From Clostridia bacterium (GTDB lineage: Bacteria > Bacillota > Clostridia > JAAYHZ01), in NCBI GenBank assembly GCA_050950825.1, contig JBMNIH010000006.1, positions 96,001-160,000 on the forward strand: a DNA stretch of 64,000 bases, written 5' to 3'. Numbering within the stretch: the stretch's first letter is position 1; each line of letters opens with the position of its first letter. Both the position numbers and the translations under genes were made by a program. The notes beneath the pieces were generated by a model. The model did no database searches. It worked only from the letters and a program-made list of their open reading frames with translations, and was not told where the DNA came from. Of the stretch, positions 3,566-46,032 are shown one piece after another.

Positions 3566-3777
3566 CATAATTGCATACGATAACCGCCGTTGCACATAAG
3601 AAATGTGTGCGAACACAGAAAAATCAAAAAGCAAACCTTGCCAAAGATGCGATTTAAAGGCTGATAAATTCTCCCTTTATCCATGGAGTGATAAAAGCGG
3701 AAACAAACTTCCCATAGAAGATCGATTCGTATATAATACCATAAAAACATGAAAGCGAAAGAAAACAGGTGGGTAGG

Positions 3778-5772
3778 ATGGGATGTATAAATGCCGTTCA
3801 CGATACGGGGGATATTCGATACCGTTCTCCTTTCGGCGCGGTACCCGTAAAAAGCGAAGTGAAGCTATCGATATTTGTCGAATCCGAAAAGACGGACAAA
3901 GTGTGGATCCGTTTGTGGAATAACGAGAAGGGAGAAAAAATCATCGAAGCCCTTTCTTCCGAAGACGGCATATGGCAAGGGACCGTTGCCGTTGATACTC
4001 CCGGTGTTTATTGGTACTACTTTATCGTTGTCACGAAAGACGGATGTTTTTATTACAGCAGAAGAAACGACACGGATTTCGGGACGGGCTTTTTGGATTG
4101 TTGCCCTCGTCATTCTTTTCAAATCACGGTGTATGAAGAGTTTTCCGTTCCTTCTTGGTATCGTGAAGGCGTTATGTACCAAATCTTCCCGGATCGGTTT
4201 TATCGAGTCCGGGAAGGTATTCAACCGATTCCATATGACGAAACATTCGATCAAGTGATCTTGGACAATCGTATGTATTTGGTGAATAAGAACGAAGAGG
4301 ATGTTCCTTCTTGTCTTAGAGATCCCTCCACCGGGGATCTTTCCAACCTGGATTATTTCGGAGGTACGTTAAAAGGTATCATTGAAAAGCTCGATTATTT
4401 GCAATCCTTAGGTATTAACATTCTTTATCTGAATCCCGTTTTTGAAGCCTCTTCCAACCACCGTTACAATACCGGCGACTATTTTAAGATCGATCCTTTA
4501 TTAGGGGACGAGACGACCTTTGAGGAATTATGCAGAGAAGGACAGAAAAGAGGCATATCGATTATATTGGACGGTGTTTTCAGCCACACGGGAAGCGACA
4601 GCCGGTATTTTAACAAAGAAGGCCGGTATCCGGAAATAGGGGCGTACCACAGCAAGGATTCGAAATATTATTCTTGGTACCGCTTTGAACGTTATCCCGA
4701 TAAATACGACTGCTGGTGGGGCGTAAAATCCTTACCGAACGTCAACGAAACCGACCCCTCCTACATGGATTTTATCATAAGGAATGAAAAGAGCGTCGTC
4801 AAATATTGGATGGAAAAAGGAGCGAAAGGCTGGCGTTTGGACGTGGCGGACGAATTGCCGGACCTTTTCTTGGAGGAGCTCCGACGTGCGGTGAAAACGA
4901 AGGATAAGGACGCCGTGATTATCGGCGAAGTATGGGAAGATGCATCCAACAAAATCAGCTACGGCAGCCTTCGTTCTTTCCTGTTGGGAAGGCAATTGGA
5001 CTCCGTGATGAATTATCCGTTCCGAGACCGGGTTTTATCCTATCTTACGGGAAAGATAAGCGGAAGGGAGCTTTCTCTTTTCACCATGAATCTTTATCAA
5101 AATTACCCGAAGCAAGCCTTTTTCTCCTGTATGAACCTGTTAGGCACTCACGATGTACCGAGAATAAGGACCCTGTTAGGAGAAGCGCCTTCCGAAGACA
5201 GCCTTGACTGTAACGAAAAAAAGGATTATCGATTAAATCGGGACCAAAAAAAATTGGCGGACAAAAGGCAAGAGCTTGCGGTTATTTTGCAAATGACTTT
5301 TCCCGGAGTCCCCGCCGTTTATTACGGCGACGAAGCCGGTATGGAAGGGTATTCCGATCCTTTTAACCGAGGAGTCTATCCTTGGGGAAGGGAAGATAAG
5401 GACATGATTGAAAAATACAAGAAATGGATACGATTGCGAAACGAAAACCAAGCCCTGAAAAAAGGGGAGTACATTCCTTTGATTCGTATGAAGATAAATT
5501 TTGAAACCCAAGGCGCTTCGGATGTTTTCGGGTTTATTCGAATCATTCGGAATAATCGAGACGCTTTCGGTGAAGAAGCGGAAAACGGTTTTGTGTTGGT
5601 GCTGGTCAACAGGTCGACACAAAAACGGCATACCCTTCGCATTGATTTAAACGAATACCGAGTGAATACACTAAGAAGATATCCGGATCATTTTGAGCAC
5701 GACAAAATAGACGGAGGTGTTTTAACCGTTACATTACCCCCGCTAGGGTATGCCGTTTGGACTGAAGCTTGA
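3778..5772 (+). CDS. GH13 neopullulanase/cyclomaltodextrinase/amylopullulanase-like glycosidase
   Basis: YQIFPDRF, DGVFSH, GWRLDVADE, GEVW, LGTHD, YYGDE; N-terminal CBM-like domain. Confidence 0.9.
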   Translation: MGCINAVHDTGDIRYRSPFGAVPVKSEVKLSIFVESEKTDKVWIRLWNNEKGEKIIEALSSEDGIWQGTVAVDTPGVYWYYFIVVTKDGCFYYSRRNDTDFGTGFLDCCPRHSFQITVYEEFSVPSWYREGVMYQIFPDRFYRVREGIQPIPYDETFDQVILDNRMYLVNKNEEDVPSCLRDPSTGDLSNLDYFGGTLKGIIEKLDYLQSLGINILYLNPVFEASSNHRYNTGDYFKIDPLLGDETTFEELCREGQKRGISIILDGVFSHTGSDSRYFNKEGRYPEIGAYHSKDSKYYSWYRFERYPDKYDCWWGVKSLPNVNETDPSYMDFIIRNEKSVVKYWMEKGAKGWRLDVADELPDLFLEELRRAVKTKDKDAVIIGEVWEDASNKISYGSLRSFLLGRQLDSVMNYPFRDRVLSYLTGKISGRELSLFTMNLYQNYPKQAFFSCMNLLGTHDVPRIRTLLGEAPSEDSLDCNEKKDYRLNRDQKKLADKRQELAVILQMTFPGVPAVYYGDEAGMEGYSDPFNRGVYPWGREDKDMIEKYKKWIRLRNENQALKKGEYIPLIRMKINFETQGASDVFGFIRIIRNNRDAFGEEAENGFVLVLVNRSTQKRHTLRIDLNEYRVNTLRRYPDHFEHDKIDGGVLTVTLPPLGYAVWTEA

Positions 5773-12858: not shown

Positions 12859-13081
12859 TTTGTTTTCCTCCCTCAAGAATCCCTTCAATATTTTCTATAT
12901 ATATCATATCATGAACGGAAAAGTTTTTTTGCAAATTTTTTACGACAGTAAAAAGCAATCCGATTAGCGTAAAGTAAGTTTCGGATAATAATCAATGGAG
13001 GAATATAACAAATAGAAAGAGGACCCCGATTGTGATATGATTAAATTTCCATACAAAAAATCACAAAGGAAGGTGTCCTCT

Positions 13082-14566
13082 ATGTATAAAAGTATACTAC
13101 ATTTTATTGAAAATGGGTTAGTCGAAATTGAAAAAATGATGGGTGATATTCTGGCAGGTAAAAAAGATGCCGATGATTTGACTGCACTCGTTAATAAAGT
13201 TACGTCAACGTTAGCGGTCAGCCTTATAGCGGATTTGTACGAGAAAGCTGATAACGATATACGAGAAAGCAGCGTGAGAAAAAAGTATTGGAATGTCGAG
13301 CACAGGAACAAAAAGAAAACCATCGTAGATGTCATGGGTAAGGTTGAATTCTGCCGAACCGGATATTGTGCGAAAGGAACGGGTGAGTATGTATATCTTT
13401 TGGATCAGGTGCTCGGATTTGAACCGCACCAGAAGGTAACGCTAGGCGCAGCTGCGAGAGCCTTGGAAGAAAGTATAGACAGCAGTTACCGCAAAGGCGG
13501 AGAGAATGCGAGCATAAAAGCGGAAGAAGGCATTAGCAAACAAGCCGTAATGGATCTGGTACATGAGATTGAGGCGGACATGCCGATGCCGGAACCGGAA
13601 GGAAAGAAGAAGATAAAAAGGCTTCATGTCATGGCCGATGAAGATCATGTGGCGGCACAGTTTTGGAATGAAAAGGGCGATTTGAAGCGAGATGCGAGGG
13701 GCCATAAGATTAATACCCTGATGCCTAAGCTTGTTTGTGTATTCGAGGATATTATCAATGAATCGGGGGAAGCATCCAAGAATCCCAGATATAAGCTGAT
13801 CGGAAAAAAATACTTTTGCGGTATTTACGAGGGTGGCAAAGGCAACGAAAAGCTTTGGATGGAGGTTGCCGAATACATAGAAAAAACATACGATACGGAC
13901 TATCTTGAGAGAATATACGTAGTCGGAGACGGAGCTTCGTGGATAAAAAAAGGATGCGAATATTTGGAGAACAGCAAATATGTCCTTGATAAATACCATA
14001 TGATGAAATATATAAACAGGTCAGTGGCGCATCTTTACGATAGCGCGGACGAGGTGAAAGACTGGATTTGGGGAGCCTTGAATCGTTTGGACAAAAAGGA
14101 ATTGAAGAATATCTATGAGCAGATCCTGAAGGTTACGGAAAGTGAAAACAAGAAGCAAGAAGTGGAAGATGCGTTAAGATATTTTCTAAATCATTGGCAA
14201 GGGATAAAAACCCGAGTGGAAGAAACAAGCGGCTGGACATATTGCATAGAAGGGCAAATAAGCCATGTATTGTCGGCAAGAATGAGCAGCAGACCAATGG
14301 GATGGAGCGAATTGGGTTGCGACCGCATGGCAAGGCTCAGAGCGTACAAAAGAAACGGCGGTAAGATTCTTGACTTGCTAAAATATCAAAAACAACGAAA
14401 AAAGCAAAAGGAAAGGCGTGAAGCACAAGAAGAATTGATAAGAGATCTGAGAAGAAGACATTCAAAATGGACGTATGCGGAAGATACCAGACGTCACATA
14501 CATGGTTTGGAAAGGAGCAGTATGAAGTGGCTAAAGAATATGACCACACTGGCTTGGGACGCATAA
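13082..14566 (+). CDS. ISLre2-family (UPF0236) transposase
   Basis: ADEDHV, GDGASWI, LDKYH, EGxxSHVLSARMSSRPMGWS motifs; start may be 13037. Confidence 0.9.
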   Translation: MYKSILHFIENGLVEIEKMMGDILAGKKDADDLTALVNKVTSTLAVSLIADLYEKADNDIRESSVRKKYWNVEHRNKKKTIVDVMGKVEFCRTGYCAKGTGEYVYLLDQVLGFEPHQKVTLGAAARALEESIDSSYRKGGENASIKAEEGISKQAVMDLVHEIEADMPMPEPEGKKKIKRLHVMADEDHVAAQFWNEKGDLKRDARGHKINTLMPKLVCVFEDIINESGEASKNPRYKLIGKKYFCGIYEGGKGNEKLWMEVAEYIEKTYDTDYLERIYVVGDGASWIKKGCEYLENSKYVLDKYHMMKYINRSVAHLYDSADEVKDWIWGALNRLDKKELKNIYEQILKVTESENKKQEVEDALRYFLNHWQGIKTRVEETSGWTYCIEGQISHVLSARMSSRPMGWSELGCDRMARLRAYKRNGGKILDLLKYQKQRKKQKERREAQEELIRDLRRRHSKWTYAEDTRRHIHGLERSSMKWLKNMTTLAWDA

Positions 14567-14609
14567 GCAGCTTGAACCGCTATGACTTTGTAACCGTGTG
14601 ACGGTAGGC

Positions 14610-14775
14610 TTTATGCCGCGAAAGTCGCTTTACGATGAGTAGACGGCATGTTAGGCTTGTCTGCCTGGCATCAAACACACAAAGCCGTATCCGGCTTCAC
14701 CCTGTAGGAAGATGCCGCAGAGGCCACTAAACATGCCGGCAGAGGCTCGTCGTAAAGCGAACCGTGGAATAAATG
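14610..14775 (+). ncRNA. candidate structured non-coding element in the ISLre2 3' arm (homologous to the element in IS256)
   Basis: nested stems with compensatory changes relative to 44533-44696; see findings. Confidence 0.6.
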
Positions 14776-14865
14776 AGTACTTTACTTGTGCATGTTAAGG
14801 ACCCCTTAGACGGTTGGACAGATTGTATAAAAATGTAATACAATTTGTTCAAGGGGGAAGAAAGT

Positions 14866-15174
14866 ATGAGGAAGAGATTCACAGTTGAACAAAAATTAGC
14901 AGCAATTAAGGATTATGAGGCAGGAGTTAGAGTAGCGGAGATATGCAGAAAGCATAATATTAGCCCTAATACCTTCTATAAATGGAGAGCTAAATATGAG
15001 GAAACAGGAGTAGATGGTCTTGCGCCAAAGGCAATAAGCTCCATTACCTCGAAAGAGTATGAACTACGGAGAGAAAATGAAGAATTGAAGAAACTCCTGG
15101 GTGAAAAAGAATTAGCAATTAAGATATATAAGGATCTATTAAAAAAAACGAGCCCGGGCTTGAAGATAGATTAG
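14866..15174 (+). CDS. IS3 OrfA (HTH)
   Basis: MRKRFTVEQK..ICRKHNISPNTFYKWR HTH plus coiled coil; A8C slippery run at 15141-15149. Confidence 0.88.
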   Translation: MRKRFTVEQKLAAIKDYEAGVRVAEICRKHNISPNTFYKWRAKYEETGVDGLAPKAISSITSKEYELRRENEELKKLLGEKELAIKIYKDLLKKTSPGLKID

Positions 15175-16100
15175 GGGTAGCAGATAAATACATAAAAGCA
15201 GGGCATGCTGCGAAAACAGTATTAAAGTTAGTTAAAGTAGCGCGCAGTACATACTATTACTGGAAGAGAAATAGAAACCGAAGGGACTCGTCTGAAGGGA
15301 ACAGAAAAGGAAGAAAGCCAGAAGGATATTCTTTGGATGAGACAGGTAGAAAAATTAAAGATGAAGAGATAGTTTCAATAATTCGGGAAATTTTGAGTGG
15401 AGAGTGCAGTTGCTATGGTTACAAGAAAGTAACTGCACATCTCAGGGTATTATACAAGATAAAAATAAACAAGAAGAAAGTATATCGGTTGATGCGCGAA
15501 AATGGACTTTTAAAGCCAGTTAACAGGAAACATGCACATAGAAGAAGGGTAGATGACAGAAAAGTTGGAAGACCGAATCAAATGTGGGCTACGGACATTA
15601 AGTATGGCTATATTGCAGGAAAAGGCAGGACATTTTACATTATTAATTATATAGATGTTTTTACAAGAGAGCTTGTTGGAAGCTATGCTGATTATAGTAT
15701 AAATTCAAAGAAAGCGGTCAGGGCTTTAGATAAAGCAATTAAGGATAGGGGAATTGATCCGTTAGGACTTATTTTAAGGAGCGATAATGGGTCTCAATAC
15801 ATAAGTGAGAACTTCGCGGAATATTGCAAAATAAAAGGAATTTATCATGAATTTACTCATGTAAGATGTCCGGAAGAAAACGGTCATATAGAAGCGTATC
15901 ATGGAATTCTTGAGGAAGAATTATTGAGTAGAAGTGAATTTGACAGTTTAGAAGAGGCGAGAGCTGCTTTATTAGACTGGGAAGATTTTTACAATAACAG
16001 GAGATTACACTGGGGACTTAAGTTAAAAACACCTAAACAGGCATATAAAGAATATGCTCAAAAAACTGAAAAACTCAAACTTCGCAGTAAATTAATATAA
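15141..16100 (+). CDS. IS3 OrfB integrase-core transposase (reached by -1 frameshift; last residues replaced by the inserted IS)
   Basis: WATDIKY, RSDNGSQY, ENGHIEAYH DDE motifs, YNNRRLH; removing the inner IS restores the end KTEKVIEKAS-stop. Confidence 0.85.
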   Translation, partial: KKNEPGLEDRLGVADKYIKAGHAAKTVLKLVKVARSTYYYWKRNRNRRDSSEGNRKGRKPEGYSLDETGRKIKDEEIVSIIREILSGECSCYGYKKVTAHLRVLYKIKINKKKVYRLMRENGLLKPVNRKHAHRRRVDDRKVGRPNQMWATDIKYGYIAGKGRTFYIINYIDVFTRELVGSYADYSINSKKAVRALDKAIKDRGIDPLGLILRSDNGSQYISENFAEYCKIKGIYHEFTHVRCPEENGHIEAYHGILEEELLSRSEFDSLEEARAALLDWEDFYNNRRLHWGLKLKTPKQAYKEYAQKTEKLKLRSKLI

Positions 16101-17694
16101 TAAATTCCTAGATAATTTAATATAAGCTTTTTAAGTAATATATGTAACTAAGCGACTTTTGACTTGGGTAATCTTAGTTTTAAATATTCAGGAAGTCTAG
16201 AAATGAAAATTCTAAGAAACCCATTTACTCGCTTATCATCAATCATGAAATACTCCATTAAGCATTCTGACAGTATTTCGAGAATCAGTTGTATTACTTC
16301 ATCGAACTTTATGTCTTGCAATTCATCGTAGCATAAATAAAACAACTCACCTATAGTTCGATTATCCATATTGTTCCGATTTTCTATTGCCAGCATGATA
16401 TACCTACTGAGGACTACTGCGGTATGAGCCGTCATCATATCATATGACAAGCCTTGAAACTCTCTACCTAAATTGAGATATGTCTTGCACATTTTATAGA
16501 AAACTTCTATATCCCAACGTTTGCCATACGTTTGAATTATTTGCTCTTCCGAAAGCGCCAAATCGGTTGAAATGATGGCTATCCATTTCTTCCTGTTATT
16601 CCGATCCCGTACGAATACAATGCGAGCATCCATAGTCTCTTCTTCTTTGTTGTGAATGGATACGACAACCGACAAAAGGTATTTGGAACGACCACGTCTC
16701 TTTTTTTGAGAATTATAGATTTCCTTAAGGGTCATTTTCTTTCCGTTAAAGGAATACTTGATATTAGGAGTATCTTTAAGCCGCCCGATGCTGTGAAGCT
16801 TCAACTTCGCAATGTCCATGAGTATTGCAGGATAGGAAAACCAACTGTCGAACAGCACGTGCTTTGCAGGTATGTGTTGCTCGACTGCTTGCCGAAGCAT
16901 CGCTATCATTAAATCAGGGGCTTTCTGCATGGCTTGCATTCTTCGTTTGTATCCATTGGTGTTTTTATGGATATCATCTCTCATTTTACACAAATGTTTT
17001 TCAACTTTGCCGGATGTGAGCAAACAAAAATTAAACGGAATAAGTGTGTTGCCATCTGACCATGCAAGAGTAAGCAACCTGAATCCTTTTTTACACTTGT
17101 TGTCGGTATGATCTCTGACAAACGAAAGCATCTCTACACATTTGCTTCGTAAACGGCCGTAGAAGGTATCATCTACAACAATGACATTAATACGGTCATC
17201 CGATGTCAAATCCTTTACATGGCTGTTTATAACCGTGGATGCCAATGTCATAACAAATGTCTGCCAGTTAATATATATAGAGTTTAGGAAACGATATACA
17301 GTATCTTTTTTAAAATCGACATTTTTGTCTCTGTTGCTGTCTTTATTTTTTATCAGGTTCATATACATACTTCTGTTTGTGAAAACCAATTGAAACAAAT
17401 AGAGAAAAATTTGAATTACCGGTACACCTCTTTTTTTATAAGCATTGGCATGTTGCAGAGCTTGATAAATTTTAAACTTTCTAAAAAAAAGATTGATTCT
17501 ATCGTTAAACTGCTTTTCTTCGATATAATTTTCCGGTATACTATTCATGGCAAGGGGCTCCTTCGTTGTGATATTATGTTTGATTATGTTAATTAATATT
17601 ATACCACAACCCAGGTCTCCTTGCTCATACTTTTTTGCACTAAACTATTGAATTATCTAGGTTCGAACGCACTTTTTCAAGTGCGAAGTTTGAG
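16074..17694 (-). mobile_element. IS4/IS701-like DDE element inserted in IS3 orfB
   Basis: perfect 13-bp IRs CTCAAACTTCGCA; DR TGAAAAA at 16067-16073 and 17695-17701. Confidence 0.85.
16148..17548 (-). CDS. DDE transposase (IS4 superfamily/IS701-like; exact family uncertain)
   Basis: VDDT, LFDSWF, YGKRWDIEVFYKMCK (YREK-type) motifs. Confidence 0.85.
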   Translation of the reverse strand: MNSIPENYIEEKQFNDRINLFFRKFKIYQALQHANAYKKRGVPVIQIFLYLFQLVFTNRSMYMNLIKNKDSNRDKNVDFKKDTVYRFLNSIYINWQTFVMTLASTVINSHVKDLTSDDRINVIVVDDTFYGRLRSKCVEMLSFVRDHTDNKCKKGFRLLTLAWSDGNTLIPFNFCLLTSGKVEKHLCKMRDDIHKNTNGYKRRMQAMQKAPDLMIAMLRQAVEQHIPAKHVLFDSWFSYPAILMDIAKLKLHSIGRLKDTPNIKYSFNGKKMTLKEIYNSQKKRRGRSKYLLSVVVSIHNKEEETMDARIVFVRDRNNRKKWIAIISTDLALSEEQIIQTYGKRWDIEVFYKMCKTYLNLGREFQGLSYDMMTAHTAVVLSRYIMLAIENRNNMDNRTIGELFYLCYDELQDIKFDEVIQLILEILSECLMEYFMIDDKRVNGFLRIFISRLPEYLKLRLPKSKVA

Positions 17695-17884
17695 TGAAAA
17701 AGTAATAGAAAAAGCAAGTTAATGTCCAATTTTAAGGGGCCAAAGCAGTGCATTTGCTATTGTCTTCATGAATTCTTGAATAGGGGATTAAGTCTATATA
17801 ATGGTGTAAAAAGAAGTTGAGCCAAAGCTCATGCCTCGGTTAGAATATAAATTACTAAAAAACAAACCCGAGGAGGGATGAGCA

Positions 17885-19096
17885 ATGACTCAATTTAATA
17901 TTACTATAAGCGGAGAACTTTTGCACGGATTATTTTTATCAAATGGCAAGGATGAAGCGTTTGCCAAATTATTGGAAGAAATATTTAACCAGGTTCTTTT
18001 AGCCCAGTCTTCAGAGCAATTGAAGGCCGACCCCTACGAGCGATCCGAAGAAAGAACCGCATACCGCAATGGATATCGAGATAGACAGTTAACTACTCGA
18101 GTAGGTACACTTACCCTGCGCATTCCCAGACACCGCAACGGGCAGTTCTCCACAGAGTTATTTGCCCGATATCAGCGCAGTGAACAAGCATTGGTGTTGG
18201 CAATGATGGAGATGGTAGTCAATGGTGTTTCCACTCGAAAAGTGGAATTAATAACCGAGGAACTATGCGGGAAGAAGTTCTCAAGATCCACTGTCTCAGA
18301 TCTTTGCAAGAAGTTAGATCCCATCGTGGAGGCTTTTAGAACTCGTCCTCTGCAGTGCCACTATCCCTTTCTCATAGTGGATGCCATCTTTGTAAATGTG
18401 CGGGAAAATGGTCGCGTACAATCAAGTGGTTTGTTGATAGCCACTGCAGTGAATGAGGAAGGCTATCGCGAAATCATAGGGTTTCAATTAGCCAACAGTG
18501 AATCCGAAAGCAGCTGGGGTGAATTCTTTTCCTCTCTTAAAGAAAGAGGGCTAAAGAATGTTGATTTGGTTACCTCTGACGACCATAAAGGGTTGGTCAA
18601 AGCTGTTAGAAGGCACTTTCAAGGCGCTGGTTGGCAACGCTGTCAAACACACTTTTCCAAGAACATTTTGGATCATACACCGAAGGCGCTGCAACCTGAA
18701 ATTAAAGAAGAGCTACGCCGGCTTTATGAGGCCGTTGACCTTGAGAGTGCTCGTAACATCAGAGATGGGATAATCCAAAATTATGAAGCCAAGGCGCCGA
18801 AAGCCACGGCTATTCTGGACGAGGCATTTGACGATATCACTGCTGTTCTGGCCCTGCCCTTAAGGTATCGAAAACGGCTTCGTACTACAAATAGTGTGGA
18901 AAGACTCAACCAGGAAATTCGTCGTCGTGAACGGGTTATTCGAATCTTTCCCAATGCATCATCAGCCATACGGCTTATGGGTGCTTTATTAATGGAACAG
19001 CATGAAAAGTGGCAAACAGGACACAAATATTTCAATATGCAGTTGTATTACCAGATGCGGAAAGAGAACGATTCGAAGTCCGGTACTGCTGCCTAA
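17885..19096 (+). CDS. IS256-family (Mutator) transposase
   Basis: YRNGY, VDA, SDDHKGL, QRCQTHF, TTNSVERLNQEIRRR. Confidence 0.95.
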   Translation: MTQFNITISGELLHGLFLSNGKDEAFAKLLEEIFNQVLLAQSSEQLKADPYERSEERTAYRNGYRDRQLTTRVGTLTLRIPRHRNGQFSTELFARYQRSEQALVLAMMEMVVNGVSTRKVELITEELCGKKFSRSTVSDLCKKLDPIVEAFRTRPLQCHYPFLIVDAIFVNVRENGRVQSSGLLIATAVNEEGYREIIGFQLANSESESSWGEFFSSLKERGLKNVDLVTSDDHKGLVKAVRRHFQGAGWQRCQTHFSKNILDHTPKALQPEIKEELRRLYEAVDLESARNIRDGIIQNYEAKAPKATAILDEAFDDITAVLALPLRYRKRLRTTNSVERLNQEIRRRERVIRIFPNASSAIRLMGALLMEQHEKWQTGHKYFNMQLYYQMRKENDSKSGTAA

Positions 19097-19101
19097 GATC
19101 G

Positions 19102-19265
19102 CATTTATTCCACGGTCTGTTGACAACGAGCCTCTCATGGCATGTTTTCCGGCATCGGGGCCATCCCCCACAGTAACAGGGATGGGCTTCATAGAAGGTG
19201 GATGATGCCCGGCTATCAGCCTAACATGCCATGTAACTCATTGTCAACAGCTTTCGCGGCATAAA
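19102..19265 (-). ncRNA. candidate structured non-coding element in the IS256 3' arm (copy 1)
   Basis: reverse complement of 44533-44696; homologous to 14610-14775. Confidence 0.6.
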
Positions 19266-19492
19266 CGCTTGCGACCATAGGCTGATTGCTACATTTAAAA
19301 TGCCGAGGTAATTTACACACTAATTTGGACTTGACTAATAGGGGTGATGTGTAATAATCAATTAAAAAAACAAATGTGGAAAAATTGATGGAAATGATAT
19401 ATGATACAGACAAGATTTAATCTTATCATAAGGGTGAACTCTCTCTTTTTATTTCCGAATGTATATTGACGCTATCAGCAATCCGTCGACAT

Positions 19493-38861: not shown

Positions 38862-39365
38862 ATGTATAAAAAAAGGATTGTTGTTTTCTTGGTATTGTCT
38901 CTTTTTGTCTTTACGGCTGTCCTATCGGGTAGCTGCGATAAAGCAACGTCCGACCCAAGGCTCGTGGAAAGCTTGGCGACCCTCCCTGTTCCGGAAGAAG
39001 ACTTTTTAGGAGATATCCAAAACACCGAGATTACTTTTATCTACACGCCCAACCCCTCCATCGATTTACGGTTTAATGCCGATTTCAAAGAGGTTGTTAC
39101 CAAGGTTACGGATCTTGTATATGAAAAATACAAGATCAAAGTCAATATGGAATTTATTGCGAATCAAAATTACTACGACACGGTCAGCGTAAGGCTGAAA
39201 TCCAACGACCGAATCGATGTGTTTTCTCCTTATCCGAGCAAATACCCTAATATGGAAACGGTACCTTATAGTACGCAAAACTATTTGCAGCTCGACAGGG
39301 AAGAACAAGAAAGACTGCTAGACCGTATCAGGGCGCATGTGGAAGAGTTGAAAAAGATGAAGTAA
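38862..39365 (+). CDS. short lipoprotein resembling the N-terminus of a solute-binding protein (possibly internally deleted)
   Basis: lipobox-like LSGSC; VYEKYKIKVNMEFI..D SBP-like segment followed abruptly by a helical tail. Confidence 0.55.
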   Translation: MYKKRIVVFLVLSLFVFTAVLSGSCDKATSDPRLVESLATLPVPEEDFLGDIQNTEITFIYTPNPSIDLRFNADFKEVVTKVTDLVYEKYKIKVNMEFIANQNYYDTVSVRLKSNDRIDVFSPYPSKYPNMETVPYSTQNYLQLDREEQERLLDRIRAHVEELKKMK

Positions 39366-44388: not shown

Positions 44389-44532
44389 ACAGCACCAACT
44401 CCTTTCCAAGATTTACAGTATTGTAGGAAAGGATAAACATAAAAGTCAAATATATTTTTTAAGTCAAATCCAAATTAGTGTGTAAATTACCTCGGCATTT
44501 TAAATGTAGCAATCAGCCTATGGTCGCAAGCG

Positions 44533-44696
44533 TTTATGCCGCGAAAGCTGTTGACAATGAGTTACATGGCATGTTAGGCTGATAGCCGGGCATCATCCAC
44601 CTTCTATGAAGCCCATCCCTGTTACTGTGGGGGATGGCCCCGATGCCGGAAAACATGCCATGAGAGGCTCGTTGTCAACAGACCGTGGAATAAATG
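44533..44696 (+). ncRNA. candidate structured non-coding element in the IS256 3' arm (copy 2)
   Basis: homologous to 14610-14775 with covarying stems. Confidence 0.6.
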
Positions 44697-44701
44697 CGAT
44701 C

Positions 44702-45913
44702 TTAGGCAGCAGTACCGGACTTCGAATCGTTCTCTTTCCGCATCTGGTAATACAACTGCATATTGAAATATTTGTGTCCTGTTTGCCACTTTTCATGCTG
44801 TTCCATTAATAAAGCACCCATAAGCCGTATGGCTGATGATGCATTGGGAAAGATTCGAATAACCCGTTCACGACGACGAATTTCCTGGTTGAGTCTTTCC
44901 ACACTATTTGTAGTACGAAGCCGTTTTCGATACCTTAAGGGCAGGGCCAGAACAGCAGTGATATCGTCAAATGCCTCGTCCAGAATAGCCGTGGCTTTCG
45001 GCGCCTTGGCTTCATAATTTTGGATTATCCCATCTCTGATGTTACGAGCACTCTCAAGGTCAACGGCCTCATAAAGCCGGCGTAGCTCTTCTTTAATTTC
45101 AGGTTGCAGCGCCTTCGGTGTATGATCCAAAATGTTCTTGGAAAAGTGTGTTTGACAGCGTTGCCAACCAGCGCCTTGAAAGTGCCTTCTAACAGCTTTG
45201 ACCAACCCTTTATGGTCGTCAGAGGTAACCAAATCAACATTCTTTAGCCCTCTTTCTTTAAGAGAGGAAAAGAATTCACCCCAGCTGCTTTCGGATTCAC
45301 TGTTGGCTAATTGAAACCCTATGATTTCGCGATAGCCTTCCTCATTCACTGCAGTGGCTATCAACAAACCACTTGATTGTACGCGACCATTTTCCCGCAC
45401 ATTTACAAAGATGGCATCCACTATGAGAAAGGGATAGTGGCACTGCAGAGGACGAGTTCTAAAAGCCTCCACGATGGGATCTAACTTCTTGCAAAGATCT
45501 GAGACAGTGGATCTTGAGAACTTCTTCCCGCATAGTTCCTCGGTTATTAATTCCACTTTTCGAGTGGAAACACCATTGACTACCATCTCCATCATTGCCA
45601 ACACCAATGCTTGTTCACTGCGCTGATATCGGGCAAATAACTCTGTGGAGAACTGCCCGTTGCGGTGTCTGGGAATGCGCAGGGTAAGTGTACCTACTCG
45701 AGTAGTTAACTGTCTATCTCGATATCCATTGCGGTATGCGGTTCTTTCTTCGGATCGCTCGTAGGGGTCGGCCTTCAATTGCTCTGAAGACTGGGCTAAA
45801 AGAACCTGGTTAAATATTTCTTCCAATAATTTGGCAAACGCTTCATCCTTGCCATTTGATAAAAATAATCCGTGCAAAAGTTCTCCGCTTATAGTAATAT
45901 TAAATTGAGTCAT
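44702..45913 (-). CDS. IS256-family transposase (same protein sequence as copy 1)
   Basis: ORF translation matches 17885-19096. Confidence 0.95.
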   Translation of the reverse strand: MTQFNITISGELLHGLFLSNGKDEAFAKLLEEIFNQVLLAQSSEQLKADPYERSEERTAYRNGYRDRQLTTRVGTLTLRIPRHRNGQFSTELFARYQRSEQALVLAMMEMVVNGVSTRKVELITEELCGKKFSRSTVSDLCKKLDPIVEAFRTRPLQCHYPFLIVDAIFVNVRENGRVQSSGLLIATAVNEEGYREIIGFQLANSESESSWGEFFSSLKERGLKNVDLVTSDDHKGLVKAVRRHFQGAGWQRCQTHFSKNILDHTPKALQPEIKEELRRLYEAVDLESARNIRDGIIQNYEAKAPKATAILDEAFDDITAVLALPLRYRKRLRTTNSVERLNQEIRRRERVIRIFPNASSAIRLMGALLMEQHEKWQTGHKYFNMQLYYQMRKENDSKSGTAA

Positions 45914-46032
45914 TGCTCATCCCTCCTCGGGTTTGTTTTTTAGTAATTTATATTCTAACCGAGGCATGAGCTTTGGCTCAACTTCTTTTTACACCATTAT
46001 ATAGACTTAATCTATTTTTTATAAATTTAGTT

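Follow-up and report, generated by a model that had tools for sequence, protein, structure and literature searches.

Insertion sequences of a Clostridia bacterium carry a probable ssoA/palA-type single-strand origin

Why should two insertion sequences (ISs) with unrelated transposases carry the same structured element behind their transposase genes? The question was raised by an earlier note on the window, i.e. the whole 64,000-nt stretch of Clostridia DNA analysed here, which described a covarying structure common to an ISLre2-family and an IS256-family IS and suggested an RNA or ssDNA structure, possibly an unnamed ncRNA or ribozyme-like module. On re-reading, the module sequences were found where they had been placed, with the motifs, the compensatory differences in stems 2 and 3 and the differing apical inserts that had been described, and the transposases are indeed unrelated (ISLre2, NF033529, 258 bits; IS256, NF033543, 392 bits). 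The modules and their hosts in the window are the following.

12963 to 19476, + strand: ISLre2a element; ends from 13 copies, then located in the window
13037 to 14566, + strand: ISLre2-family transposase gene, 509 aa (PF06782, 3.7e-65; NF033529, 258 bits against a cutoff of 200)
14606 to 14779, + strand: module variant V1, probable single-strand origin (sso), in ISLre2a; 164.6 bits with covariance model R1, model positions 1-174
17885 to 19096, + strand: IS256-family transposase gene of the second IS256a copy (PF00872, 2.9e-132; NF033543, 392 bits)
19098 to 19269, - strand: second copy of V2, in this other IS256a copy; 175 bits with R1, and by sequence
44460 to 46011, - strand: IS256a element of about 1.55 kb, its ends placed to within a few nt; from an empty-site contig and comparison of the flanks of copies
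44529 to 44700, + strand: module variant V2, probable sso, in IS256a; 175 bits with R1
44702 to 45913, - strand: IS256-family transposase gene, 403 aa, convergent with the probable sso; ORF of the same sequence family as 17885-19096

The covariance model R1, built from the six variants of this genome only, places these three sites of about 172 nt each; its best boundaries lie slightly beyond the earlier ones, and the outer stem is about 3 pairs longer. The genome holds 29 copies of the module, and all 29 are within ISs of the ISLre2, IS256 and IS3 families, which bears out the proposals that the module rides in ISs and is shared by unrelated families. V1, of which the genome has 13 identical copies, begins 44 nt past the stop codon of the ISLre2 transposase gene, and an IS3-family element is inserted 18 nt beyond it. 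ISLre2a is split at 14793/14794 by a nested block (the IS3-family element, a DDE_5 IS and IS256a), resumes at about 19331 and is flanked by a 9-bp duplication, AGCAATCCG. In IS256a, the 5' end of V2 (44529-44700) is set back about 70 nt from the end of the IS, and a few nt separate its 3' end from the stop codon of the transposase gene. A contig from a DNA run connects 44452 directly with 46013, leaving out 1560 nt and sharing 9 letters, and so represents the empty site with its duplication. The module is on the strand of the transposase gene in ISLre2 and on the opposite strand in IS256, a flip that the earlier note had not stressed.

The folding of both variants, as a long rod with a three-way junction, is far above chance. 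The RNA fold energies are -78.4 and -83.2 kcal/mol (z -7.1 and -9.2; none of 200 shuffles as good), and as ssDNA the folds reach -43.5 kcal/mol for V1 (z -7.3; complement -36.0) and -44.4 kcal/mol for V2 (z -7.2; complement -37.8), so that the module strand is the more stable one by 6.6-7.5 kcal/mol. Covariation is strong and strand-specific. In an alignment of 92 sequences (71 distinct) fitted to the model's structure, most rows of which were fetched by a pattern fixing two motifs, 95.6% of cells pair, against at most 44.6% with the partners slid; both sides change in 31 of the 51 pairs, and none of 500 shuffles reached any of these measures. When only the IS256-linked copies are taken (23 distinct), pairing holds in 96.9% of cells, and both sides change in 8 pairs; the hairpin is conserved while the sequence diverges inside ISs. 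The G-U/G-T wobble of the outer stem is retained in 68 of 71 sequences, and R1 scores 156.9-181.8 bits on the forward strand against 34.1-45.2 bits on the reverse strand of the same sites. A conserved, covarying single-strand structure far beyond a terminator, as first proposed, is upheld, and these computational tests predict an element of one orientation only, as expected of an sso.

Rolling-circle plasmids are the textbook carriers of single-strand origins, and ICEs have joined them since 2015; to our knowledge, no insertion sequence is known to have one. In excerpts of the literature, an sso is described as an extensive, partly palindromic hairpin of about 160 nt, with the RSB in its loop-distal stem, orientation-specific and primed by RNA polymerase. 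In the case of ssoA, the same excerpts state that the bearing strand folds once it is single-stranded, and that host RNA polymerase binds the loop-distal RSB and promoter-like sequences of the stem and makes one short primer RNA, which DNA polymerases extend to convert ssDNA into dsDNA. In the predicted ssDNA folds, the 172-174-nt modules form a partly palindromic hairpin of this kind.

Scanning with R1, with filters off, returned exactly one full-length site (model positions 1-174) in each of the three ssoA plasmids tried: pT181 at 3767-3931 (40.6 bits, E 6.8e-10), pE194 at 637-800 (31.3 bits, E 1.8e-7) and pC221 at 635-796 (25.9 bits, E 4.8e-6), scores that are modest (26-41 bits) and E-values that are rough, as they come from a shortened calibration. 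The same scan of the ssoU plasmid pUB110 gave nothing significant (best 8.8 bits, E 0.17); next-best matches in pT181 and pUB110 did not exceed 8.8 bits, and pE194 and pC221 had no second match at E up to 0.1. All three plasmid matches begin GC-TTTATGCCGAGAAAA and finish TTGGAATAAA-GC, as the IS-borne elements do, and the 3' end TGGAATAAA is common to the IS-borne elements and the ssoA plasmids. No match was obtained by blastn of both variants against 72,556 plasmids, because identity to the staphylococcal ssoA is too low and only the covariance model spans the gap; a pattern scan of viral contigs found no stretch.

The motifs known from ssoA could be placed on the module as follows.

14610 to 14624, + strand: RSB-like motif TTTATGCCGCGAAAG, identical at 13 of 15 positions to the published RSB TTTATGCCGAGAAAA
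14629 to 14657, + strand: candidate promoter-like pair of V1, TTTACG (-35-like, in stem 2), 17 nt, TAGGCT (-10-like, at the three-way junction); from sequence
44551 to 44580, + strand: candidate promoter-like pair of V2 on the 5' arm, TTGACA (44551-44556), 18 nt, TAGGCT (44575-44580); from sequence

The RSB-like motif sits at the loop-distal base of the hairpin, on its 5' arm, and is invariant in all six variants of the genome, its constancy in the fetched metagenome loci being given by construction of the search pattern. We found no paper printing this RSB variant in the literature searched. An apparent rearrangement junction at the RSB (C4:453501) was merely a 2-nt insertion in an ordinary IS3 copy. 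The CS-6 of ssoA (TAGCGT/A), which according to the excerpted literature lies in a loop where primer RNA synthesis stops, is not preserved as such in the IS-borne elements: the site aligned to TAGCGA of pT181 reads nGCCnG (TAGCCG in V2), and a conserved TAGGCT lies about 10 nt upstream of it, at the junction. The RSB-to-CS-6 offset in the pT181 match is 53 nt, equal to the value for pSSTET1 in those excerpts. The TAGGCT anchor is found in 69 of the 71 distinct sequences, 60 of which have at most one mismatch to TTGACA 16-18 nt before it; the TTTACG of V1 has two. TTGACA-N16-18-TAGGCT is a candidate promoter-like pair, and we infer that TTGACA-N17-TAGGCT on the 5' arm would act as an ssoA-like promoter, the junction leaving the -10-like part unpaired and the variable apical hairpin being the part that would be transcribed.

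The module is like the ssoA/palA origins (pT181, pE194, pC221, pMV158 family) in its size class (about 160-175 nt), its strand-specific imperfect hairpin and its RSB at the loop-distal 5' base, and, as in pT181, where ssoA follows pre/mob, it stands right after the stop codon of a gene. It differs in that its host is an IS or integrative element in Clostridia chromosomes, that CS-6 is not conserved as TAGCGT/A, and that the IS modules combine a three-way junction with an apical hairpin that varies, their stem 2 containing a near-consensus TTGACA. The Frpo of conjugative plasmids, a ssDNA promoter hairpin, is comparable to an sso. The ssi or primosome assembly sites of phages also are ssDNA hairpins that recruit RNA polymerase or primase, and excerpts of the literature set the phiX174 ssi against the pT181 sso. 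Unlike the module, neither Frpo nor ssi has a sequence relation to ssoA; they serve to express early genes or to load primase, whereas the product of ssoA is one primer made by RNA polymerase.

By these comparisons, the module is a predicted homologue, across its whole length, of the ssoA/palA origins of rolling-circle plasmids. Because of the full-length R1 sites in ssoA plasmids, the RSB match and the common 3' end, we conclude that it is very probably an ssoA/palA-type sso, carried as an accessory module inside ISs. The initial idea of an unnamed ncRNA or ribozyme-like novelty gives way to this homology and to the RSB motif; of the alternative 'RNA or ssDNA', the ssDNA side is retained. The possibility of an existing Rfam family had been left open; none of 4227 covariance models matched at its gathering score, and at E up to 10 only chance miRNA-type matches of at most 15.6 bits appeared, which can be explained by the fact that ssoA-type origins act as ssDNA, i.e. 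are DNA elements. Other named structures were also considered and set aside. A hammerhead-like CUGAUG...GAAA is absent from V1 and the Rfam ribozyme models gave no hit; as for integron attC, IS110 bridge RNA and TnpB omega RNA, the recombinases here are DDE-type and the fold is explained by the ssoA homology.

In other hosts, the module is found at the 3' end of transposase genes of the IS256, IS3, ISLre2, IS21, ISNCY and IS630 families, IS630 being a cut-and-paste family, and also at the 3' end of large serine recombinase genes, which make up 18 of the 69 adjacent ORFs in a metagenome sample. IS linkage was seen at 69 of 80 genome loci; no recognisable IS lay alongside at the other 11 (L010, L012, L017 and L134 are among the copies without one). 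Relative to the transposase gene, the module points the opposite way in IS256 and the same way in ISLre2 and in 19 of 20 IS3 cases, and IS21 has both orientations; this lack of uniformity gives no single simple rule for a function at the level of the IS. No replication-strand bias was seen from GC skew (12 copies with the module on the G-rich strand, 15 on the C-rich strand, 2 weak-skew copies left out). At one metagenome locus (L175), the module lies between two large serine recombinase genes, beside a rolling-circle Rep of family PF23343. This locus is a Rep-bearing integrative element and provides a rolling-circle context for the same module. None of the 29 genome copies, all in chromosomal ISs, has an adjacent Rep gene; these 29 do not lie on the displaced strand of a rolling-circle replicon, which concerns their context and not their structure. 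Our literature searches retrieved no description of an sso within an IS, and no paper joining single-strand-origin terms with copy-out, figure-eight or IS-circle terms. Neither an IS1447 paper nor an IS-in-pGK12 paper describes this element. The presence of an sso inside ISs thus appears to be a new context.

What could an sso do for an IS? The module lies between the stop codon of the transposase gene and the terminal repeat, which would be the only stretch that an IS can spare, and from there it would prime synthesis of the complementary strand each time the IS becomes single-stranded. Such ssDNA might come from the strand displaced or circularised in copy-out/paste-in transposition or, alternatively, from transfer via conjugation, rolling-circle carriers or transformation. 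It is possible that ISs retain the module for second-strand synthesis in copy-out/paste-in, or for rescue after ssDNA transfer. In the excerpts of PMC4595007, sso1 of ICEBs1 is orientation-specific and important after excision and ssDNA transfer, and putative sso's are reported in other ICEs. Like the module, sso1 lies on a chromosomally integrated mobile element (PMC4595007), and the serine-recombinase/Rep element L175 fits this kind. Unlike the ISs studied here, which have only a transposase, ICEs encode a relaxase of their own together with functions for rolling-circle replication and conjugation. The term 'insertion sequence' does not occur in PMC4595007.

The figure-eight/minicircle (copy-out/paste-in) families named in the excerpts of PMC3299598 and PMC7780238 are IS3, IS21, IS30 and IS256, in which host replication must turn a single-strand-bridged intermediate into a double-stranded circle; three of them, IS3, IS21 and IS256, bear the module. 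These excerpts mention no dedicated priming site. They present ISCth4, a 1,503-bp IS256-family element of a related organism, as a structural model for copy-out/paste-in (PMC3299598, PMC7780238); it has non-coding room sufficient for the module. In IS2, the right end is the only donor, and in IS256 and ISCth4 either end can attack (PMC3299598, PMC7780238, in the excerpts). By our own reasoning, which is not found in those papers, the IS2 pathway would imply that the sense strand is circularised, and this is the sso strand in 19 of the 20 IS3-family cases. Unlike this copy-out/paste-in set, the IS630 and serine-recombinase elements carry the module too. We would suggest, tentatively and with more doubt than confidence, that circle-forming ISs recruited a plasmid lagging-strand origin, and that the sso on the circularised or displaced strand lets RNA polymerase prime the complement, leading to the dsDNA minicircle that integrates.

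The module might also be an sso by descent that is a mere passenger in ISs. It would have come from rolling-circle elements or by hot-spot recombination at the RSB, whose definition in the excerpted literature is that of a recombination site, and it would hitch-hike without benefit, being tolerated only in the 3' region that the IS can spare. Indeed, the module is not family-wide: the same genome supports sister ISs that lack it, with 7 copies of an IS256 (406 aa) and 4 of an ISLre2 (482 aa), and other module-less ISs thrive there too (IS1182 with 13 and 6 copies, IS1634, IS91, IS30). Metagenome contigs branch precisely at the ends of the V2 module (44529 and 44698), and the element tree, which has no support values, intermixes IS3, IS21, ISLre2, ISNCY and unclassified DDE hosts, which suggests repeated transfer among hosts. 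A passenger would nevertheless hardly be expected to keep its structure and motifs while diverging for long alongside IS256 transposases (identity between IS256a and IS256c is 77% for the transposases and about 82% for the modules, with pairing kept), nor the pairing seen across the 71 distinct sequences. Since, moreover, ISs are compact and usually shed useless DNA, and free copies are few beside the IS-linked loci, we regard carriage without benefit as unlikely.

A structured ncRNA, which would be antisense in IS256 and part of the 3' UTR of the transposase mRNAs in ISLre2, IS3 and IS21, acting on transposase expression, mRNA stability or RNase III-type processing, would fit the strong RNA folds and the covariation with many G-U pairs, although DNA hairpins tolerate G-T wobbles too. 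Contigs from RNA libraries (assembled contigs, no raw reads) span the module and the IS, which is no proof of transcription, and TTGACA-N17-TAGGCT could fire in dsDNA as well. An origin with an additional role at the RNA level is conceivable, yet we judge the ncRNA reading itself very improbable: the full-length homology is to ssoA, whose origins act as ssDNA, the same module stands beside serine recombinase and Rep genes, no Rfam model matches, and the module strand flips relative to the gene between families, so that no common mRNA role fits. Least credible of all, in our opinion, is a MITE-like or REP-like palindrome that moves into ISs on its own, or a structure that serves IS ends as an intrinsic terminator or an insulator. 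The imperfect palindrome with its inverted-repeat-like outer stem, for which the ssoA homology already accounts, the sharp module boundaries and the few copies without a recognisable IS nearby would agree with it; yet no target-site duplication was seen at the junctions inspected, none of the 29 copies of this genome is free and there is no burst, the outer stem is not followed by a U-tract, and a three-way junction with conserved unpaired motifs exceeds what a terminator needs.

The reading of the module as an ssoA/palA-type sso hints that these ISs pass through a single-stranded DNA stage. That six or more IS families across Clostridia have conserved the module suggests a stage that is regular and limits IS success. 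In practice, R1 offers a means to annotate origins missed by Rfam and blastn, and the module might serve as a portable, host-matched sso in the design of clostridial vectors. If circle-forming ISs did recruit this origin, the sso-bearing strand would reveal the donor end: in IS3-, ISLre2- and IS21-type elements this would be the right end (sense strand), as in IS2, and in the IS256 lineage studied here the left end (antisense strand). Given its free exchange among at least six IS families and serine-recombinase/Rep elements, the module would then be a shared 'replication accessory' of circle-forming mobile DNA.

The earlier note had described three copies of a folded element of about 165 nt, and we found them where it had placed them, with sequences that agree with its description. 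Its claim that the element is shared by unrelated IS types also held, as the neighbours are ISLre2-family and IS256-family transposase genes.

Features of the window around the element
12963-19476: ISLre2a, with the 9-bp duplication AGCAATCCG; its tail resumes at about 19331
13037-14566, plus strand: ISLre2-family transposase gene, neighbour of the element
14606-14779, plus strand: element
14845-15174 and 15333-16100: ORFs of an IS3-family element, nested block
16148-17548, minus strand: DDE_5 transposase, nested block
17885-19096, plus strand: IS256-family transposase gene, neighbour of the element
19098-19269, minus strand: element
44529-44700, plus strand: element
44702-45913, minus strand: IS256-family transposase gene, neighbour of the element

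From the outside in, the rod formed by the element consists of an outer stem, an internal loop that is asymmetric (GAAAG facing AC), a stem 2 of 15-16 bp and a stem 3 of 11 bp, with a three-way junction that bears a small hairpin and a stem carrying the variable apical hairpin. RNA folding gave -78.4 and -83.2 kcal/mol, at z-scores of -7.1 and -9.2, energies that none of 200 shuffles matched; folded as ssDNA, the stated strand was 6.6-7.5 kcal/mol more stable than its complement. Relative to the transposase gene, this strand is the same in ISLre2 and the opposite one in IS256. RNAalifold gave 58 pairs for the six sequence variants of this genome, 13 with compensatory double changes. The covariance model R1, built from these variants only (51 pairs), scored 156.9-181.8 bits at 29 sites of the genome on the stated strand, and 34.1-45.2 bits on the reverse strand at 16 of them. 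In a wider alignment of 92 matches (71 distinct sequences), fitted to the model, as is its IS256-linked subset, and made of relatives that are not independent, 95.6% of the pairing cells paired, versus 28.6-44.6% with partners slid, 31 of the 51 pairs changed on both sides, and 0 of 500 shuffles reached any of these measures. One outer-stem G-U/G-T wobble was kept in 68 of the 71 sequences; the constancy of ATGTTAGGCT and CGTGGAATAAA is partly by construction, since 80 rows were fetched by a pattern fixing both. Among IS256-linked copies alone (39 matches, 23 distinct), 96.9% of cells paired and 8 pairs changed on both sides.

The Rfam scan for which the earlier note had called matched the element to no existing family; the sole match at gathering score within the window is a T-box leader (RF00230, 10606-10850, minus strand, 116.3 bits where 93 is the gathering score). 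The single-strand origins (sso) of rolling-circle plasmids proved more informative. The literature describes ssoA as a hairpin, about 160 nt long, that arises only when the DNA is single-stranded and that functions in one orientation only; RNA polymerase is bound by its loop-distal RSB and by promoters inside it, and synthesises one short primer. The motifs are printed in two papers, RSB as TTATGCCGAGAAAATTT or TTTATGCCGAGAAAA and CS-6 as TAGCGT or TAGCGA. The counterpart of RSB in our element, TTTATGCCGCGAAAG, is identical at 13 of 15 positions, and all three ssoA plasmids tried yielded one full-length R1 match each.

R1 run with filters off on four classical plasmids
pT181 (ssoA): 3767-3931, directly after pre/mob; 40.6 bits, E 6.8e-10
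pE194 (ssoA): 637-800; 31.3 bits, E 1.8e-7
pC221 (ssoA): 635-796; 25.9 bits, E 4.8e-6
pUB110 (ssoU): none significant; best 8.8 bits, E 0.17

The ssoA plasmid matches start at RSB and finish at TTGGAATAAA-GC, and the IS-borne elements have the same ends. In pT181 the distance from the start of RSB to CS-6 is 53 nt, which equals the published offset of the pT181-like pSSTET1; CS-6 is not conserved as such in the IS-borne elements. Given the RSB match, the plasmid matches and the literature description, we class the element, with good confidence, as an ssoA-type sso.

In this genome, blastn located 29 loci in six variants of 70-83% mutual identity, none of them a free copy outside an IS.

Variants in this genome and their hosts
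V1: 13 copies, ISLre2a
V2: 6 copies, IS256a
V3: 5 copies, IS3-family element with PF20310 OrfA and rve OrfB
V4: 1 copy, second ISLre2
V5: 1 copy, IS256 relative
V6: 3 copies, another IS256 relative

Comparison of copies showed that the element is internal to the ISs rather than adjacent. ISLre2a reads stop, 44 nt, element, 181 nt and right end; IS256a reads IS end, about 65 nt, element, 6 nt and stop on the other strand; the IS3 host reads stop, 14 nt, element, about 130 nt and end. In the window, ISLre2a is split at 14793/14794, 18 nt past the element, by a nested block of three other ISs, the third being IS256a. The empty site of IS256a was found in a metagenome contig, where 44452 is joined to 46013 (1560 nt skipped, 9 shared letters). 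At another locus of this genome (contig C2, ~38,900-39,100), the ISLre2a right end abuts an IS256a sso missing only its first two bases; therefore, in this one case, an IS had gone in right at the 5' boundary of the RSB-like motif. RSB was first defined as a recombination hot spot.

Beyond this genome, R1 matched 9 of 60 other genomes among relatives and 13 of 150 sampled across the phylum (E <=1e-6). When one genome per species was scanned with an exact pattern, at least 99 stretches emerged, nearly all of those listed being from Clostridia/Bacillota, with Acetivibrio, Thermoclostridium, Anaerobacterium, Ruminiclostridium, Syntrophomonas and Desnuesiella among the carriers. Of the 80 loci listed, 69 are IS-linked.

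Neighbours at the 80 loci listed
IS256 transposase: 35, on the strand opposite to the element, with 2-22 nt between its stop and the element 3' end
Unclassified DDE transposase (475-491 aa): 7, its stop directly adjoining the element 5' end
IS3: 7, upstream on the strand of the element
ISLre2: 3, placed as for IS3
IS21 helper IstB: 3, mixed arrangement
ISNCY cluster: 3, mixed arrangement
IS21 transposase fragment: 1, placed as for IS3
No ORF call, flanks matching IS-internal flanks: 10
Amid housekeeping genes, neighbour unresolved: 11

IS630 occurred in a single case (L011), as did an IS110 transposase gene, which lies 328 nt downstream (L140). Copies that look solo adjoin SurA-like, GGDEF, GH3 and EF-Tu genes; in genome G190, an EF-Tu gene is followed at a distance of 91 nt by a full-length sso (L134, contig C4; 156.8 bits) beside which no transposase was called, and this sso occurs again on contig C10. 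Short relatives of ~107-113 nt (L015 and L020 in G033; L142 in G097; L143 in G151) match only R1 positions 20/21-154/155, keeping stems 2, 3 and the junction without the outer stem and RSB-like motif; one is separated by 19 nt from an oppositely oriented IS3 transposase gene.

A second pattern gave at least 120 stretches in metagenome contigs. Among the matches listed (80 loci), 69 ORFs lie <=150 nt from the element at 60 loci, including, at E <=1e-10, 18 large serine recombinases, 12 IS3, 10 IS256, 7 ISLre2, 2 IS110 and one each of IS1182, ISNCY, IstB and IS5; every recombinase of ~485-520 aa is encoded convergently to the element, 9-20 nt away. At locus L175 (1362-9655), the sso lies between two large serine recombinase genes, beside a rolling-circle Rep (PF23343), with a HaeIII-type restriction enzyme and a C5 methylase; an integrative rolling-circle element of this sort would be expected to carry an sso. 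Nearly identical recombinase genes (97-99%) occur in at least 8 other metagenome loci, human gut assemblies included.

The module is accessory and moves between hosts. Module-free elements of this genome, whose IS load is heavy overall, include an IS256 of 406 aa (7 copies, only 54 nt from stop to IS end), an ISLre2 of 482 aa (4), IS1182-like elements (13 and 6), IS1634 (4), IS91 (4), IS30 (3), IS481-like (3) and a group II intron (reverse transcriptase in 5 copies). IS91 transposes by rolling circle; its copies here carry no R1-type sso. A FastTree of the 71 distinct elements, only suggestive with 174 columns and no support values, placed IS256-linked ones in a single clade, with one exception on a short contig, and intermixed those of IS3, IS21, ISLre2, ISNCY and the unclassified DDE family. 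Branch points of metagenome contigs fall precisely on the two ends of the module, 44529 and 44698, and in contig sets X15 and X1 the inner 128 nt, between 44550 and 44679, are replaced with the base matched on both sides, consistent with a conserved base and an apical domain exchangeable in the community.

The 5' arm holds TTGACA or a near match in stem 2 and, 16-18 nt on, TAGGCT where stem 3 meets the junction. At this spacing, 60 of 69 distinct sequences have <=1 mismatch to TTGACA, 2 of the 71 lacking the anchor; TAGGCT was fixed by the fetch pattern in most rows, yet it is present too in relatives found by the model alone. The pair is predicted to be a likely promoter. With the 3' arm as template, transcription would proceed into the variable apical hairpin, which would fit a conserved base serving as 'promoter' and a 'transcribed' tip free to vary.

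Passages of PMC3299598 and PMC7780238 describe figure-eight transposition for IS3, IS21 and IS256, in which host replication converts the figure-eight to a double-stranded minicircle, and these three module-carrying families are figure-eight families. It is conceivable, if rather doubtful, that the sso is a priming site for this copy-out intermediate. In those passages the right end of IS2 is the sole donor, from which we reason, beyond the paper itself, that the circularised strand is the sense strand; this matches the module being on the sense strand in 19 of 20 IS3-family cases (5 + 7 + 1 + 6; the exception is L142). For IS256 and ISCth4 they allow attack by either end, so the opposite-strand module there is neither predicted nor ruled out.

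Alternatively, the sso might rescue an IS arriving as ssDNA. On linear ssDNA, sso-primed synthesis would go toward the 5' end of the sso-bearing strand, which would convert the transposase gene to double-stranded DNA in the arrangements of ISLre2, IS3 and IS21 but would leave it out in that of IS256, where circular ssDNA would be needed. No bias of sso strand with GC skew was found in this genome (12 versus 15 copies). The literature searched, which spans few subscription journals and excludes the primary ssoA papers, held no description of an sso inside an IS and no printing of this RSB variant, nor, among the matches listed, a paper linking an sso with copy-out, figure-eight or IS circles.

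To conclude, the finding is real, but the ncRNA-like module that the earlier note gave as one option was not borne out as a new RNA class. What the finding adds is the context, apparently new and also widespread, in which a known DNA element of the ssoA type occurs.
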